A stretch of 60,550 bases of DNA, from the IMG/VR virus record IMGVR_UViG_2844443253_000004. The stretch is one strand, 5' to 3'. Numbering within the stretch: the first letter of the stretch is position 1; each line of letters opens with the position of its first letter. Shown one piece after another: positions 21,816 to 57,727 of this stretch. The stretch comes from a virus (lineage: Duplodnaviria; Heunggongvirae; Uroviricota; Caudoviricetes). A program made the translations under genes and the position numbers. The notes under the pieces are model-generated. The model was not told the DNA's origin. It saw only the letters and a list, made by a program, of their open reading frames with translations, and did not search any database.

Positions 21816-22607
21816 TTAAGCAGCCATCTGATGATATTTTTCCCTGAAGGCTGCCGGGGAGATATTCCCCAGACGAGAGTGACGACGCTGACGATTGTAG
21901 AAAATCTCAATGTATTCCCGTATTACTGAGATGGCTTCATCCCGGTTATTAAAACGATAGTGGCTCAGGCTCTCATTTTTCAGCGTTCCCCAGAAGCTTT
22001 CCATCGGAGCGTTGTCGTAACAGTTACCTTTACGCGACATTGATGTTTTCAGACCAGACTGCTCCTGTATGACCCGGTAATCGTATGCGCAGTACTGTGA
22101 ACCTCGATCAGAGTGGTGGATTAGCCCGGCAGGTGGGCGCTGGCTCCTGAGCGCCATAAACAGGGCTTTACCTGTCAGCTCTTTTGTCATGCGCTCTCCC
22201 ATGGCGTAGCCGACAATTTCGCACGTATAAACATCTTTGATGCCAGCAACATACGTCAGGTCCGCCACCCAGACCTGATTTGGTGCTGTAGGAGCGAACG
22301 TCTGGTTCAGCAGATTTGGCGCAACTGGCAGATTGTGGTTCGGGTTCGTAGTCGCTCTGAACTTGCGTTTCTGCTTACAGCGTAGCCTCAGCTCCTTACG
22401 AAGACGTGCCAGTCGGTCACGACCAACGATGATGCCATTCTCTGCCAGCTCCGTCTGGAGCCGCCGGGTTCCATATGTTTCGCGAGTGCGGATATGTGCC
22501 ACCTTAATCTCCAGTTTTAGCCGCTCATCACTTTGTTTTCTGTCTGAGGGTTCATGCTGTACCCAGTTGTAATAACCGCTCCTGGATACACCAAATACCT
22601 GACACAT
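21816..22607 (-). CDS. IS600 OrfB, 9-aa internal deletion variant
   Basis: identical to copy 1/3 OrfB except the missing 9 residues. Confidence 0.8.
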   Translation of the reverse strand: MCQVFGVSRSGYYNWVQHEPSDRKQSDERLKLEIKVAHIRTRETYGTRRLQTELAENGIIVGRDRLARLRKELRLRCKQKRKFRATTNPNHNLPVAPNLLNQTFAPTAPNQVWVADLTYVAGIKDVYTCEIVGYAMGERMTKELTGKALFMALRSQRPPAGLIHHSDRGSQYCAYDYRVIQEQSGLKTSMSRKGNCYDNAPMESFWGTLKNESLSHYRFNNRDEAISVIREYIEIFYNRQRRHSRLGNISPAAFREKYHQMAA

Positions 22608-25054: not shown

Positions 25055-28493
<3,439 letters not shown>

Positions 28494-34824: not shown

Positions 34825-35643
34825 ATGTGTCAGGTATTTGGTGTATCCAGGAGCGGTTATTACAACTGGGTACAGCATGAACCCTCAGACAGAAAACAAA
34901 GTGATGAGCGGCTAAAACCGGAGATTAAGGTGGCACATATCCGCACTCGCGAAACATATGGAACCCGGCGGCTCCAGACGGAGCTGGCAGAGAATGGCAT
35001 CATCGTTGGTCGTGACCGACTGGCACGTCTTCGTAAGGAGCTAAGGCTACGCTGTAAGCAGAAACGCAAGTTCAGAGCGACTACGAACCCGAACCACAAT
35101 CTGCCAGTTGCGCCAAATCTGCTGAACCAGACGTTCGCTCCTACAGCACCAAATCAGGTCTGGGTGGCGGACCTGACGTATGTTGCCACACAGGAGGGAT
35201 GGTTGTACCTCGCTGGCATCAAAGATGTTTATACGTGTGAAATTGTCGGCTACGCCATGGGAGAGCGCATGACAAAAGAGCTGACAGGTAAAGCCCTGTT
35301 TATGGCGCTCAGGAGCCAGCGCCCACCTGCCGGGCTAATCCACCACTCTGATCGAGGTTCACAGTACTGCGCATACGATTACCGGGTCATACAGGAGCAG
35401 TCTGGTCTGAAAACATCAATGTCGCGTAAAGGTAACTGTTACGACAATGCTCCGATGGAAAGCTTCTGGGGAACGCTGAAAAATGAGAGCCTGAGCCACT
35501 ATCGTTTTAATAACCGGGATGAAGCCATCTCAGTAATACGGGAATACATTGAGATTTTCTACAATCGTCAGCGTCGTCACTCTCGTCTGGGGAATATCTC
35601 CCCGGCAGCCTTCAGGGAAAAATATCATCAGATGGCTGCTTAA
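34825..35643 (+). CDS. IS600 OrfB
   Basis: 272 aa. Confidence 0.88.
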   Translation: MCQVFGVSRSGYYNWVQHEPSDRKQSDERLKPEIKVAHIRTRETYGTRRLQTELAENGIIVGRDRLARLRKELRLRCKQKRKFRATTNPNHNLPVAPNLLNQTFAPTAPNQVWVADLTYVATQEGWLYLAGIKDVYTCEIVGYAMGERMTKELTGKALFMALRSQRPPAGLIHHSDRGSQYCAYDYRVIQEQSGLKTSMSRKGNCYDNAPMESFWGTLKNESLSHYRFNNRDEAISVIREYIEIFYNRQRRHSRLGNISPAAFREKYHQMAA

Positions 35644-51352: not shown

Positions 51353-54300
51353 ATGGGTAAAGGCAGCAGTAAGGGGCATACCCCGCGCGAAGCGAAGGAC
51401 AACCTGAAATCCACGCAGTTGCTGAGTGTGATTGATGCCATCAGCGAAGGGCCGGTTGACGGTCCGGTGGATGGATTAAAAAGCGTGCTGCTGAACGGTA
51501 CGCCGGTCCTGGATAGCGAGGGGAAGACAAACTTTTCCGGTGTTACGGTGGTGTTCCGCGCCGGCGAGCAGGAGCAGACACCGCCGGAGGGGTTTGAATC
51601 TTCCGGCTCAGAGACTGTGCTGGGTACGGAAGTGAAATACGACACGCCGATCACCCGGACCATCACGTCGGCAAACATTGATCGTCTGCGCCTGACCTTC
51701 GGTGTGCAGGCACTGGTGGAAACCACCTCAAAGGGGGACCGGAATCCGTCGGAAGTCCGCCTGCTGGTTCAGATACAGCGTAACGGTGGCTGGGTGACGG
51801 AAAAAGACATCACCATTAAGGGCAAAACCACTTCGCAGTATCTGGCCTCGGTGGTGGTGGGTAACCTGCCGCCGCGCCCGTTTAATATCCGGATGCGCAG
51901 GATGACACCGGACAGCACCACAGACCAGCTGCAGAACAAAACGCTCTGGTCGTCGTACACCGAAATCATCGATGTGAAACAGTGCTACACGAACACGGCG
52001 CTGGTCGGCGTGCAGGTGGATTCAGAGCAGTTCGGTAACCAGCAGGTGAGTCGCAATTATCATCTTCGCGGGCGCATTCTGCAGGTGCCGTCGAACTATA
52101 ACCCGCAGACGCGGCAATACAGCGGTATCTGGGACGGAACGCTTAAGCCAGCATACAGCAACAACATGGCCTGGTGTCTGTGGGACATGCTCACTCATCC
52201 GCGCTACGGCATGGGGAAACGTCTTGGTGCGGCAGATGTGGACAAATGGGCGCTGTATGTCATCGGCCAGTACTGCGACCAGTCAGTGCCGGACGGATTT
52301 GGCGGCACGGAGCCGCGCATCACCTGTAACGCTTACCTGACCACACAGCGTAAGGCGTGGGATGTTCTCAGTGATTTCTGCTCGGCGATGCGCTGTATGC
52401 CGGTATGGAACGGGCAGACGCTGACGTTCGTGCAGGACCGACCGTCGGATAAAGTGTGGACCTATAACCGCAGTAATGTGGTGATGCCGGATGATGGCGC
52501 GCCGTTCCGCTACAGCTTCAGCGCCCTGAAGGACCGCCATAATGTCGTTGAGGTGAACTGGATTGATCCGGACAACGGTCATGAGACGGCGACAGAGCTT
52601 GTGGAGGACACGCAGGCCATTGTCCGTTACGGTCGTAACGTCACGAAGATGGATGCCTTTGGCTGTACCAGCCGGGGACAGGCGCACCGCGCCGGGCTGT
52701 GGCTGATTAAAACGGAACTGCTGGAAACGCAGACCGTGGACTTCAGCGTCGGCGCAGAAGGGCTTCGCCATGTACCGGGTGATGTCATTGAAATCTGCGA
52801 TGATGATTATGCCGGTATCAGCACCGGTGGTCGCGTACTGGCGGTGAACAGCCAGACCCGGACGCTGACGCTCGACCGTGAAATCACGCTGCCGTCCTCC
52901 GGTACCACGCTGATAAGCCTGGTTGACGGAAATGGCAATCCGGTCAGCGTGGAGGTTCAGTCCGTCACCGACGGCGTGAAGGTGAAAGTGAGCCGGGTTC
53001 CTGACGGCGTTGCAGAATACAGCGTGTGGGGGCTGAAGCTGCCGACGCTGCGCCAGCGCCTGTTCCGCTGCGTGAGTATCCGTGAGAACGACGACGGCAC
53101 GTATGCCATCACCGCCGTGCAGCATGTGCCGGAAAAAGAGGCCATCGTGGATAACGGGGCACACTTTGACGGTGACCGGCGCGGCACGGTGAATGGTGTC
53201 ACGCCGCCAGCGGTGCAGCATCTGACCGCCGAAGTCACCGCAGACAGCGGGGAATATCAGGTGCTGGCGCGATGGGACACGCCGAAGGTGGTGAAGGGTG
53301 TGAGCTTCCTGCTTCGCCTGACCGTGGCAGCGGACGACGGCAGTGAGCGGCTGGTCAGCACAGCCAGGACGACGGAAACCACATACCGCTTCAGGCAGCT
53401 GGCGCTGGGGAATTACAGTCTGACAGTCCGGGCGGTAAATGCCCGGGGGCAGCAGGGCGATCCGGCGTCGGTATCGTTCCGGATTGCGGCACCGGCAGCG
53501 CCTGTCACTATTGAACTGATACCGGGGTATTTTCAGATAACGGTGGTCCCGAAACTGGCTGTATATGACCCGACGGTGCAGTTTGAGTTCTGGTTTTCGG
53601 AAAAGCGGATTGCGGATATCAGGCAGGTTGAAACCAGCGCCCGCTATCTTGGCACGGCGCTGTACTGGATAGCCGCCAGTATCAATATCAGGCCGGGCCA
53701 TGATTATTATTTTTACGTTCGCAGTGTGAACACCGTTGGCAAATCGGCATTTGTGGAGGCCGTCGGTCGGGCGAGCGATGATGCGGAAGGTTATCTGAGT
53801 TTTTATAAAGGGTTGATCAATAAAACGCATCTCGGCAAGGAGTTGTGGACGCAGATTGATAACGGTCAGCTTGCGCCGGACCTGACTGAAATCAGGACGT
53901 CCATTACGAATGTCAGCAATGAAATCACGCAAACCGTCAATAAAAAACTGGAAAATCAGAGTGCTGCAATCCAGCAGATACAGAAAGTTCAGGTTGATAC
54001 AAATAATAACCTGAACAGCATGTGGGCTGTGAAGCTGCAACAGATGAAGGACGGACGCCTTTATATTGCGGGTATCGGTGCCGGTATTGAGAATACGCCA
54101 GCAGGAATGCAGAGTCAGGTGCTGCTGGCGGCAGACAGGATTGCGATGATTAATCCTGCGAATGGCAACACAAAGCCGATGTTTGTTGGTCAGGGCGATC
54201 AGATATTCATGAACGACGTGTTCCTGAAACGCCTGACGGCTCCGACCATTACCAGCGGCGGTAATCCTCCGGCATTTTCCCTGACACCTGGCGGACGGCT

Positions 54301-54832
54301 GACGGCGAAAAATGCCGATATCAGCGGTAACGTGAACGCGAACTCCGGGACGCTCAACAACGTCACGATTAATAAGAACTGTCGGGTTCTGGGAAAATTG
54401 TCCGCGAACCAGATTGAAGGCGATCTCGTTAAAACAGTGGGCAAACCTTTCCCACGGGACTCCCGGGCACCGGAGAGGTGGCCATCAGGGACCATTACCG
54501 TCAGGGTTTATGACGATCAGCCGTTTGATCGGCAAATTGTTATTCCCGCGGTGGCGTTTCGCGGTGCTAAACATGAGCGGAAGAATAACAATATTTATTC
54601 GTCATGCCGCCTGATAGTGAAGAAAAACGGTGCTGAAATTTATAACCGAACGACCCTGGATAATACGCTGATATATACGGGTGTTATTGATATGCCTGCC
54701 GGTCACGGTCACATGACGCTGGAGTTTTCTGTATCGGCATGGCTGGTAAATGGCTGGTATCCCACAGCAAGTATCAGCGATTTGCTGGTTGTTGTGATGA
54801 AGAAATCCACAGCAGGTATCAGTATCAGCTGA
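51353..54832 (+). CDS. J: tail tip / host specificity protein gpJ
   Basis: 1159 aa collinear with lambda J. Confidence 0.9.
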
Positions 54833-55499: not shown

Positions 55500-55562
55500 T
55501 TAGCCAGGTAACACAGTGTTATGACAGCCCGCTGGTTCAGGCGGGCTTTTTGTGGGGTGAAT

Positions 55563-56624
55563 ATGGCAGTAAAGATTTCAGGTGTACTGAAAGATGGGGC
55601 GGGTAAACCTGTCGTAAATTGTGCGATTGAACTGCGGGCCAGAAGAACCAGTCCGACCGTTGTGGCACACGTTGTTGCCACTTGCGTGACGGACAATAAC
55701 GGTGCTTATGTGATTGAGGCTGAGCCGGGGTATTACGAGGTTGCGCTTCACTGTAACGGCTGGCAGCCAACCCGTGTCGGGGATATTGATGTGGCACCGA
55801 CTGATGCACCGGGGACACTGAACGCGTTTCTGAATGCACCAAAGGATGGTGATTTACGTCCGGAGGTGATGAAGCGCTTTGAGGAAATGGTGGCGCAGGC
55901 GCAGCAGAGTGCCGGGGCTGCAGCCGGAAACGCACAGCAGACGGCGCAGGATGTGGCGGCAGCCGCAACGGCCCGTGATGATGCACAACGTTTTGCGGAG
56001 AAAGCCCGACAGGATGCAACCGTCACAGCTGAGGACAGAAAGGCCACTGCGGAAGATGTGACAAGCACAGGAGCAAATGCAGCCGCAGCCGGACAGAGCG
56101 CACAGGATGCCGCAGGTTATGCCCGCGCAGCAGAACAGGCCAAAAATGACATTGATGCTGCGCTGACCGGCACTCTGAAAATGGCTAACCATCTGTCAGA
56201 AATCGCAGCAGCAGGCGAAAAGGCACAACAGAAGTCCCGGGATAATCTGGGGCTGAAAAGTGCGGCCACGATGGAAGCACAGAGCGACATTTACGACCGG
56301 ACAAAAGGCCGTCTGGCGATACCCGGCGCATTCGGCTTTGGGTGTGCTTTTCTGCCTGAAGATGTTATCCGTTTTGACACTAAGAGTGATTTCCTGGCCT
56401 GGGTAAGGAATGCGCTGCCAGGTGAATATTCCGTTGCTGGCCCCTACGGCATCATCATACCCGACACACGGTTTGAAGGGGTGCTCAGCATCCGGTGGAC
56501 TGATGCACGCCCTGAGACAACAGAACCGCGGTACAGAGCCAAATCCCTTACTTTTTACGGCATTAACGGCCCCATTTATCACACCCGCTACCGCTACTGG
56601 CCCATATCCAGACTGACTGGGTGA
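55563..56624 (+). CDS. side tail fibre-like protein (Stf N-terminal domain, divergent C-terminus)
   Basis: MAVKISGVLKDGAGKPVVNC... equals the lambda Stf N-terminus; C-terminal 110 aa unrelated to lambda Stf as recalled. Confidence 0.65.
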   Translation: MAVKISGVLKDGAGKPVVNCAIELRARRTSPTVVAHVVATCVTDNNGAYVIEAEPGYYEVALHCNGWQPTRVGDIDVAPTDAPGTLNAFLNAPKDGDLRPEVMKRFEEMVAQAQQSAGAAAGNAQQTAQDVAAAATARDDAQRFAEKARQDATVTAEDRKATAEDVTSTGANAAAAGQSAQDAAGYARAAEQAKNDIDAALTGTLKMANHLSEIAAAGEKAQQKSRDNLGLKSAATMEAQSDIYDRTKGRLAIPGAFGFGCAFLPEDVIRFDTKSDFLAWVRNALPGEYSVAGPYGIIIPDTRFEGVLSIRWTDARPETTEPRYRAKSLTFYGINGPIYHTRYRYWPISRLTG

Positions 56625-56974
56625 AAATAAATATAACCACAGAAGATATTATTTACAGAATCGTGGCGAGCTCTGTCCGCAACAGATGGGGAGACCCTGA
56701 CATTGGCGGGCTGATTATTGCTGCGTACCAGGGAGAAGCTGACGGTGATAAAGTCATCAGACTTGTCAGGGGGCAGTCATACAGAGGCTCACGACTGGGA
56801 CCGGTGGGGATTTCAGTGCCCGGTACTCCCACCGGAACGTATATAGCATCCCCACAATTTTTCATTACGGGATGTTCAGAGCATTCATTACCGGGGTCAT
56901 ATTGCGCCCTGTCCGGGGTGCCGGATGCACATGTCTCTGGCGCAATGCCCGGGCTTTTTATTCGCACATCGTGA
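56621..56974 (+). CDS. hypothetical protein (tail-fibre region)
   Basis: 117-aa ORF coupled to the stf-like stop. Confidence 0.35.
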   Translation: MKINITTEDIIYRIVASSVRNRWGDPDIGGLIIAAYQGEADGDKVIRLVRGQSYRGSRLGPVGISVPGTPTGTYIASPQFFITGCSEHSLPGSYCALSGVPDAHVSGAMPGLFIRTS

Positions 56975-56983
56975 GGAATGCAC

Positions 56984-57548
56984 CGTGGAAATTAAAAAAA
57001 TCATTAATCCCCGTTATACCGAAAGTGGCGCAGTAGACTGTGACGTTTTTTTTGACGACAGGGACCAGGCAGTTCCCTACACAGCCACCGCTGATGATGT
57101 TGCACCGACGGGTCAGCAAATCTGGCAGGAACTGCAAAGTGGCAAATGGGGTGAGATAGCCCCATTCACTGTGACACCAGAAATGCTGGAAGCGGCCAGA
57201 GAGGCCAGACGTCAGGAAATTGAAGCATGGCGCACAGAACAGGAGGCGAAGCCGTTCACGTTTGAATGGAACGGCCGCACGTGGAACGCTGACGCCTCGT
57301 CAGTGGCCCGCCTGTCCCCGGTGGTCATGCTGGCAAAATCTGTCGCGGCACAAACACATATGGTGTGGAGTGATGCGGATAATCAGCAGGTGAAACTGTC
57401 GATGCCGGAACTGGAAGAACTGGCGGCAGCAATGGTGCAGGCGCAGGTCGATCGCAACGATGAGATTTATCGCCGTCAGCGTGAAATGAAAGAGGAGCTG
57501 AGCGGTCTGGATGATTTGGCTTCAATTCGGGCGTTTGACGTTGAGTAA
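56984..57548 (+). CDS. hypothetical protein, possibly tail fibre assembly/chaperone-like (GTG start)
   Basis: 188 aa; GAGGA RBS 7 nt before GTG; position where tfa usually lies. Confidence 0.35.
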
Positions 57549-57664
57549 TGAATAAGCCGCAACTGGCGGAATCACAGAAGACCGCTTTGCTTACCGAAGC
57601 GGAGTCTGTCATCCGGCCGCCGGGGCGTGCTGTCAGGCTGAACAGGGAAACGGATGAATCCGGG

Positions 57665-57691
57665 GAGGCCCGGGGGCGGGCCTCTGTTTTT
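57665..57691. terminator. rho-independent terminator between tail-fibre genes and convergent ipaH
   Basis: GAGGCCCG-gggg-CGGGCCTC followed by TGTTTTT. Confidence 0.65.
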
Positions 57692-57727
57692 CCGGAGTCA
57701 GTCCGGTCTGTGGTTTATGCGATGTGA

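Follow-up and report, generated by a model that had tools for sequence, protein, structure and literature searches.

The viral record IMGVR_UViG_2844443253_000004 (60,550 nucleotides; the whole of this stretch is referred to below as the window) carries three consecutive open reading frames (ORFs) between positions 55563 and 57548, at the site of the side-tail-fibre gene, stf, of lambda-like phages. An earlier interpretation made from the letters of the DNA (the sequence-only reading) had described them as a 353-residue fibre with a conserved N-terminus and a different C-terminal domain, followed by two unassigned genes of 117 and 188 residues. The analysis reported here leads to another description: ORF1 and ORF2 are very probably one side-tail-fibre gene, now a frameshift-broken pseudogene, followed by an intact DUF4376 gene (ORF3) that is likely to encode its chaperone. 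The features of the locus are listed below.

55563 to 56974, plus strand: stf pseudogene, 471 codons once 4 bp are restored, now present as ORF1 and ORF2
55563 to 56624, plus strand: ORF1, 353 amino acids (aa), ATG start
56621 to 56974, plus strand: ORF2, 117 aa, the 3' fragment of stf (its final 117 codons), in the -1 frame
55563 to 55955, plus strand: N-terminal tail-attachment domain of the lambda Stf type, residues 1-131 (Pfam PF08400, 1.1e-48)
55851 to 56270, plus strand: Ala/Gln-rich alpha-helical shaft, residues ~97-236 (long helices in the AlphaFold2 model)
56283 to 56974, plus strand: distal tip domain, ~230 aa (residues ~240-471), interrupted by the frameshift
56611 to 56620, plus strand: 4-bp deletion site, located within a short tetranucleotide repeat; GACTGACTGG in the window, GACTGACTGACTGG or GACTGACTGGCTGG in intact alleles
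56973 to 56977: GAGGA, 7 nt upstream of GTG 56985
56985 to 57548, plus strand: ORF3, intact DUF4376 gene, GTG start, 187 aa (188 codons with the stop)
57548 to 57727, plus strand: 59-aa ORF, a lambda-type tfa remnant (phrog_7784, 1.7e-44)
57664 to 57685, plus strand: strong terminator-like hairpin with a T-run, 9 pairs of which 7 are G-C, inside the 59-aa ORF

A side-tail-fibre gene in two pieces

Profile comparison placed both fragments in the same family. ORF1 matched the tail-fibre profile phrog_2636 (568 positions) at 5.5e-164, and ORF2 matched the same profile at 7.5e-45 over positions 456-567, colinear with ORF1, the two together giving a colinear full-length match. Likewise, an alignment of 30 full-length relatives (421-580 aa, from E. 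coli, Shigella, Salmonella and metagenomes) stays colinear where the window is broken, and a Trp at the junction is conserved almost without exception. When ORF2 alone was searched against 1.84 billion representative proteins, 61 clusters were recovered, and in nearly all of them ORF2 aligned with the very C-terminal end of a longer protein; the few matches that are short look like fragments. The sole possible start of ORF2 is a GTG, which lacks a Shine-Dalgarno sequence and overlaps the stop of ORF1 as GTGA (56621-56624).

A fibre that is truly short (353 aa) and ends in a new C-terminal domain, accompanied by two independent accessory genes (117 and 187 aa), would fit the operon-like appearance of consecutive ORFs with overlapping or tight stops and starts, and public pipelines do call the 117-aa ORF a 'phage tail protein'. 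This arrangement is nevertheless extremely unlikely, given the colinearity of ORF1 plus ORF2 with single proteins of 467-475 aa in every relative, the C-terminal character of the relatives of ORF2, its poorly equipped start, and a break that sits in the middle of a predicted domain.

The reading frame of stf is interrupted by a 4-bp deletion. Compared base by base, the window reads AGACTGACTGGGTG where intact alleles read AGACTGACTGACTGGGTG (protein RLTDWV) or AGACTGACTGGCTGGGTG (protein RLTGWV), i.e. a tandem tetranucleotide has one unit fewer in the window, (ACTG)3 being reduced to two units or, equivalently, (CTGG)2 to one. The shift takes effect at codon 352 and leads to a stop two codons on, so that the break falls mid-way through the tip domain. 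Intact alleles of 467-470 aa from enteroinvasive E. coli (EIEC) and Shigella (loci L001, L002, L014 and L015 of our comparison set) carry the extra 4 bp at 56611-56620, and restoring them in the window yields a 471-aa protein near-identical to these alleles. The closest E. coli genomes are enteroinvasive strains, which have ipaH alongside and a single 470-aa coding sequence at this position, named 'prophage tail fiber N-terminal domain-containing protein'. The same gene is represented by WP_197939858.1 (E. coli FDAARGOS_943, PHROG 2636), with lom upstream, the DUF4376 gene and ipaH downstream, and 98-99% nucleotide identity. In contrast to the intact 470-aa PHROG 2636 alleles of E. coli, EIEC and Shigella, the window lacks the 4 bp and shows a 3-bp in-frame difference at 56450-56452. 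Because the frameshift truncates the fibre and strands its last 117 codons, stf is a pseudogene in the window, and the 353-aa length on which the sequence-only reading had built a fibre with a different terminal domain is an artefact of that truncation.

The split allele is real and fixed in S. flexneri. S. flexneri 2a strains 301 and 2457T encode the exact 353-aa protein, as do several drafts; the 117-aa ORF occurs unchanged on 311 contigs, and the two-unit allele was found in 8/8 S. flexneri loci fetched, which fall in two chromosomal contexts, one with a ybhB-bioA flank and one with a DinI/IS110 flank. A sequencing or assembly error hiding an intact gene would suit this kind of site, a 4-bp indel in a short repeat being error-prone. 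The identical allele in independently sequenced strains, and in two different chromosomal contexts, makes such an error very improbable.

The repeat might also act as a phase-variation switch, or ribosomal frameshifting or re-initiation at the GTGA might still deliver a functional or two-piece fibre. The mutation does lie inside a tandem tetranucleotide repeat, two- and three-unit alleles both occur in nature, and the stop and start overlap. However, two to three units are too short for efficient slippage, a Tandem Repeats Finder scan of the locus returned no array, no slippery heptamer is present at the site, and all eight S. flexneri loci have the same two units. Moreover, particles could not be formed if the split portal gene described below is non-functional. 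We regard continued production of a fibre by any of these routes as very unlikely.

In the preferred account, a frameshift-broken stf followed by its chaperone gene, the intact gene would have encoded a fibre of ~470 aa, with an N-terminal domain docking on the tail tip, a helical shaft, and a tip domain binding a receptor on the host. One unit of the tetranucleotide repeat would then have been lost in this lineage, most likely by replication slippage, truncating the fibre within the tip and leaving the last 117 codons as an apparently separate ORF.

The start of stf was assigned to ATG 55563. An upstream ATG at 55521, giving a 367-aa product, was rejected because a terminator-like hairpin (55526..55547) sits inside the extension, and homologues start at MAVKISG. 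Within residues 1-131, the PF08400 (phage_tail_N) match scored 165.1 bits against a gathering score of 26.6, and the domain matched the Stf chain of the in-situ Ur-lambda tail tip (PDB 9e7m, chain 9e7m_Ta) both by sequence (E=3.4e-22) and by Foldseek (E=1.6e-6, target-normalised TM 0.82). Homology to lambda Stf is therefore certain, as the sequence-only reading had it, but its statement that the first ~60 residues are equal was too strong: ORF1 shares 50% identity with lambda orf-401 across residues 1-121, and complete identity is limited to the first 12.

With lambda (Ur-lambda) the locus thus shares the PF08400 domain, the match to 9e7m and the placement of stf immediately behind J and lom within a lambda-like tail operon, and the assignment to a lambda-type side-tail-fibre locus stands. 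In laboratory lambda, stf is likewise split by a frameshift, into orf-401 and orf-314. The differences lie downstream of the N-terminal domain. The shaft and tip are unrelated to orf-314, the intact fibre is ~470 aa in length as opposed to 774 aa in lambda, and the partner gene encodes a DUF4376 protein in place of a Caudo_TAP Tfa, of which the window holds just the 59-aa remnant. No significant alignment of the window ORFs to orf-314 or Tfa was obtained, in agreement with the lack of obvious similarity already remarked upon from the letters.

The tip domain and the DUF4376 gene

The shaft varies in length among alleles, as seen from indels in the family alignment. The tip that follows is predicted to be beta-rich (AlphaFold2 monomer, predicted local distance difference test (pLDDT) about 65-89). 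A Pfam scan of 12 tip domains gave no family, and a profile hidden Markov model search against PDB sequences gave no relative. Similarly, Foldseek of the fibre model against the PDB returned matches to the N-terminal domain and none for the tip, and in NCBIfam the fibre, the DUF4376 protein and the 59-aa ORF were all without a model. Full-length profile matches thus exist at the level of PHROG, whereas Pfam has none for the tip. The domain is common in E. coli and Shigella phages, and tips 28-34% identical to it end the fibres of Av-05 (lytic, Vequintavirinae), Goslar (a jumbo phage) and SerU-LTIIb (a prophage).

ORF3 begins 10 nt past the stop of stf, immediately downstream of the fibre. Its GTG start at 56985 is supported because homologues of 187-193 aa begin exactly there and GAGGA lies 7 nt upstream; the ATG at 56925 used in the PGAP annotation (207 aa) was rejected, as the 187-193-aa homologues from E. 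coli start at the GTG. The protein matched Pfam PF14301 (DUF4376) with 62 bits against a cut-off of 25 and phrog_1141 at 1e-88, and more than 1,800 relatives were found. Its AlphaFold2 model (pLDDT 85) consists of a small N-terminal sheet and a helical body with two beta-hairpins, and this model matches many DUF4376 proteins of very diverse phages (Foldseek, BFVD).

A DUF4376 gene follows the tip domain wherever examined. It stands directly after a fibre with a related tip in Av-05 and SerU-LTIIb, and the EIEC and Shigella loci show the same pairing with stf. Because this pair recurs in phages as unrelated as Av-05 and SerU-LTIIb, tip and DUF4376 gene travel as a cassette. In Alteromonas phage V22 and for the H-fibre of Campylobacter CJIE1, a functional fibre requires the DUF4376 protein whose gene lies downstream of the fibre gene, and models show such proteins capping the tip of the fibre as trimers (PMC7289586, PMC10579305, PMC7882524). 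ORF3 shares with Alteromonas V22 gp27, A5 gp9 and the CJIE1 H-fibre partner the presence of PF14301 in the C-terminal half, a length of ~190-240 aa, the position directly downstream of the fibre, and a predicted alpha-helical body with beta-hairpins (PMC10579305). The likeness in sequence is that of the shared Pfam domain, and the partner fibre tip differs. By analogy, the DUF4376 protein may help the tip domain to trimerise and fold, in the role that Tfa has in lambda.

Several points weigh against this account of fibre and chaperone. The fold of the Alteromonas chaperones is reported to resemble the intramolecular chaperone domains of T5 pb1 and the K1F tailspike, yet this likeness was not recovered for the ORF3 monomer model, which in a Foldseek search of the PDB gave a best E of 0.04, with no match at E<=0.001, T5 and K1F absent from the top 50, and a marginal match to prefoldin-beta at E=0.14. 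ORF3 is most likely the cognate fibre-assembly chaperone as judged from its family membership and the gene order, and the tip is presumably the receptor-binding end as judged entirely from its position in the fibre. Finally, the GTGA overlap could in principle permit re-initiation and hence low-level translation of ORF2.

The sequence-only reading had proposed that both downstream ORFs are receptor-binding or chaperone replacements. This fits ORF3, a likely chaperone in the place of Tfa with a PF14301 domain, and fails for ORF2, which is the last 117 residues of the fibre itself. The coordinates and lengths of the three ORFs and the GTG start hold, save that the figure of 188 for ORF3 counts codons with the stop and the protein has 187 residues. 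Nor are the ORFs novel or unassigned: the exact proteins are in GenBank (S. flexneri 301, 2457T) and belong to phrog_2636 (ORF1 and ORF2) and phrog_1141 (ORF3).

Within the DUF4376 gene, ~17 substitutions fall in ~100 bp between window positions 57275-57377 and the corresponding 4777-4879 of L002 (E. coli CFSAN029787), with nearly identical flanks; judged from the sequences, this cluster looks like a small recombination patch.

The 59-aa ORF downstream is annotated publicly as 'tail fiber assembly protein'. Its Caudo_TAP match is sub-threshold (17.5 bits vs 22.1) and covers the internal profile positions 66-98. A simple split of tfa by insertion of ipaH is not supported, since the 59-aa ORF and the EIEC downstream fragment overlap on the Caudo_TAP profile (66-98 and 77-130). 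The locus forms the distal part of the prophage's late operon, which probably ends at the hairpin at 57664-57685.

Prophage setting, cargo and decay

The window is 99.83% identical over 11 kb to S. flexneri 2a 2457T (AE014073, 735907-748968). The genes upstream of stf are those of a lambda-like tail operon, L, K, I, J and lom, and the order from there is J, lom, stf, the DUF4376 gene, the tfa remnant and then ipaH on the opposite strand. The surrounding features are as follows.

51353 to 54832: J, 1159 aa
54900 to 55499: lom (Pfam Ail_Lom, 6.6e-125)
55526 to 55547, plus strand: terminator-like hairpin between lom and stf
57728 to 59491, minus strand: ipaH, intact, 587 aa, an E3 ubiquitin ligase effector of the type III secretion system (T3SS) (Pfam LRR_TTSS and NEL)
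59969 to 59983, plus strand: lambda att core GCTTTTTTATACTAA, the right prophage-chromosome junction, adjoining ybhB
60074 to 60550, minus strand: ybhB
1048 to 2535: dcuC

The 15-bp att core has a single exact match in the window (0 expected by chance) and is identical to the lambda attP core (lambda 27724-27738); a second copy, attL, is not present within the window. Because the core stands just before ybhB, the stf, DUF4376 and ipaH genes make up the right arm of a lambda-like prophage that sits at att-lambda in Shigella flexneri. Between ipaH and the att core, a short ORF (59595-59780, plus strand) may be a fragment of an IS256-family transposase.

The ipaH gene, which scored 562 bits against a cut-off of 550 with NCBIfam IpaH_Shig, is a cargo gene that abuts the fibre module and lies between the fibre genes and attR. 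Lambdoid prophages, for example those of E. coli O157, carry 'moron' or exchangeable effector cargo loci downstream of their tail-fibre genes. The arrangement seen here, a T3SS effector between fibre module and attR on the opposite strand, is shared with such loci; the cargo differs, being an IpaH-family E3 ligase of Shigella and EIEC as opposed to Nle or Esp effectors. A literature search on ipaH together with tail fibre gave nothing directly relevant. In EIEC the state is reversed, with the fibre gene intact and the adjacent ipaH annotated as frameshifted (L001 8230-9875, L002 5230-6872).

In another S. flexneri locus (L015; GCA_900457175, locus 1-6921), an intact 467-aa stf is followed by the DUF4376 gene, the 59-aa ORF and a 587-aa ipaH, and this cassette is immediately preceded by a P2/Mu-type module for baseplate and fibre (Baseplate_J, Gp34_trimer, Caudo_TAP), from which it follows that the block from fibre to ipaH has moved between unrelated prophage remnants. 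It is highly doubtful that the tip and DUF4376 gene constitute a mobile receptor-binding-plus-chaperone cassette of lambdoid prophages, Vequintavirinae and jumbo phages that is kept beside ipaH for a purpose other than that of the phage, e.g. with a two-piece fibre coupled through the GTGA, or the intact DUF4376 protein, still expressed and functional.

Decay extends beyond the fibre. The lambda-type portal gene is split into overlapping plus-strand ORFs at 38077-39132 (351 aa) and 39047-39670 (207 aa), which match positions 2-288 and 288-354 of the Phage_portal_2 profile, giving the prophage a second frameshift. The phage is also interrupted by IS3-family elements, whose transposase ORFs (rve, HTH_21) were located at 6181-6999 and 34825-35643 on the plus strand and at 21816-22607 and 12798-13703 on the minus strand, one of them shortly before the large terminase gene. 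The lambdoid early and replication region is flanked by two ORFs of 507 aa in opposite orientation (17960-19483, plus strand, and 25624-27147, minus strand). Their domain matches are identical (reverse transcriptase and group II intron maturase), and they probably represent a single group II intron present twice.

A second, Mu-like phage remnant occupies 3255-15500, with a Mu transposase at 4147-5781 and an ORF for a Mu repressor-like DNA-binding protein. Its head module lies on the minus strand and comprises the major capsid, DUF2213, Mu F-like, Phage_portal_3 and Terminase_3 genes.

Meaning of the split locus

What lies at this locus is the ordinary pseudogenisation of a common prophage fibre gene of Shigella and EIEC, and it was already known. 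For the tip and DUF4376 cassette, no experimental characterisation in enterobacteria was found in the literature. The case carries a caution for annotation, in that a frameshift is the first thing to check for when a truncated fibre is followed by an adjacent ORF whose start overlaps its stop. The tip and DUF4376 gene form a widespread two-gene cassette without a solved structure, and structural studies of fibre and chaperone pairs could reasonably take an intact allele as their target. For the prophages of Shigella, the locus adds one more case of decay in which morphogenesis genes erode and the ipaH virulence cargo stays intact.

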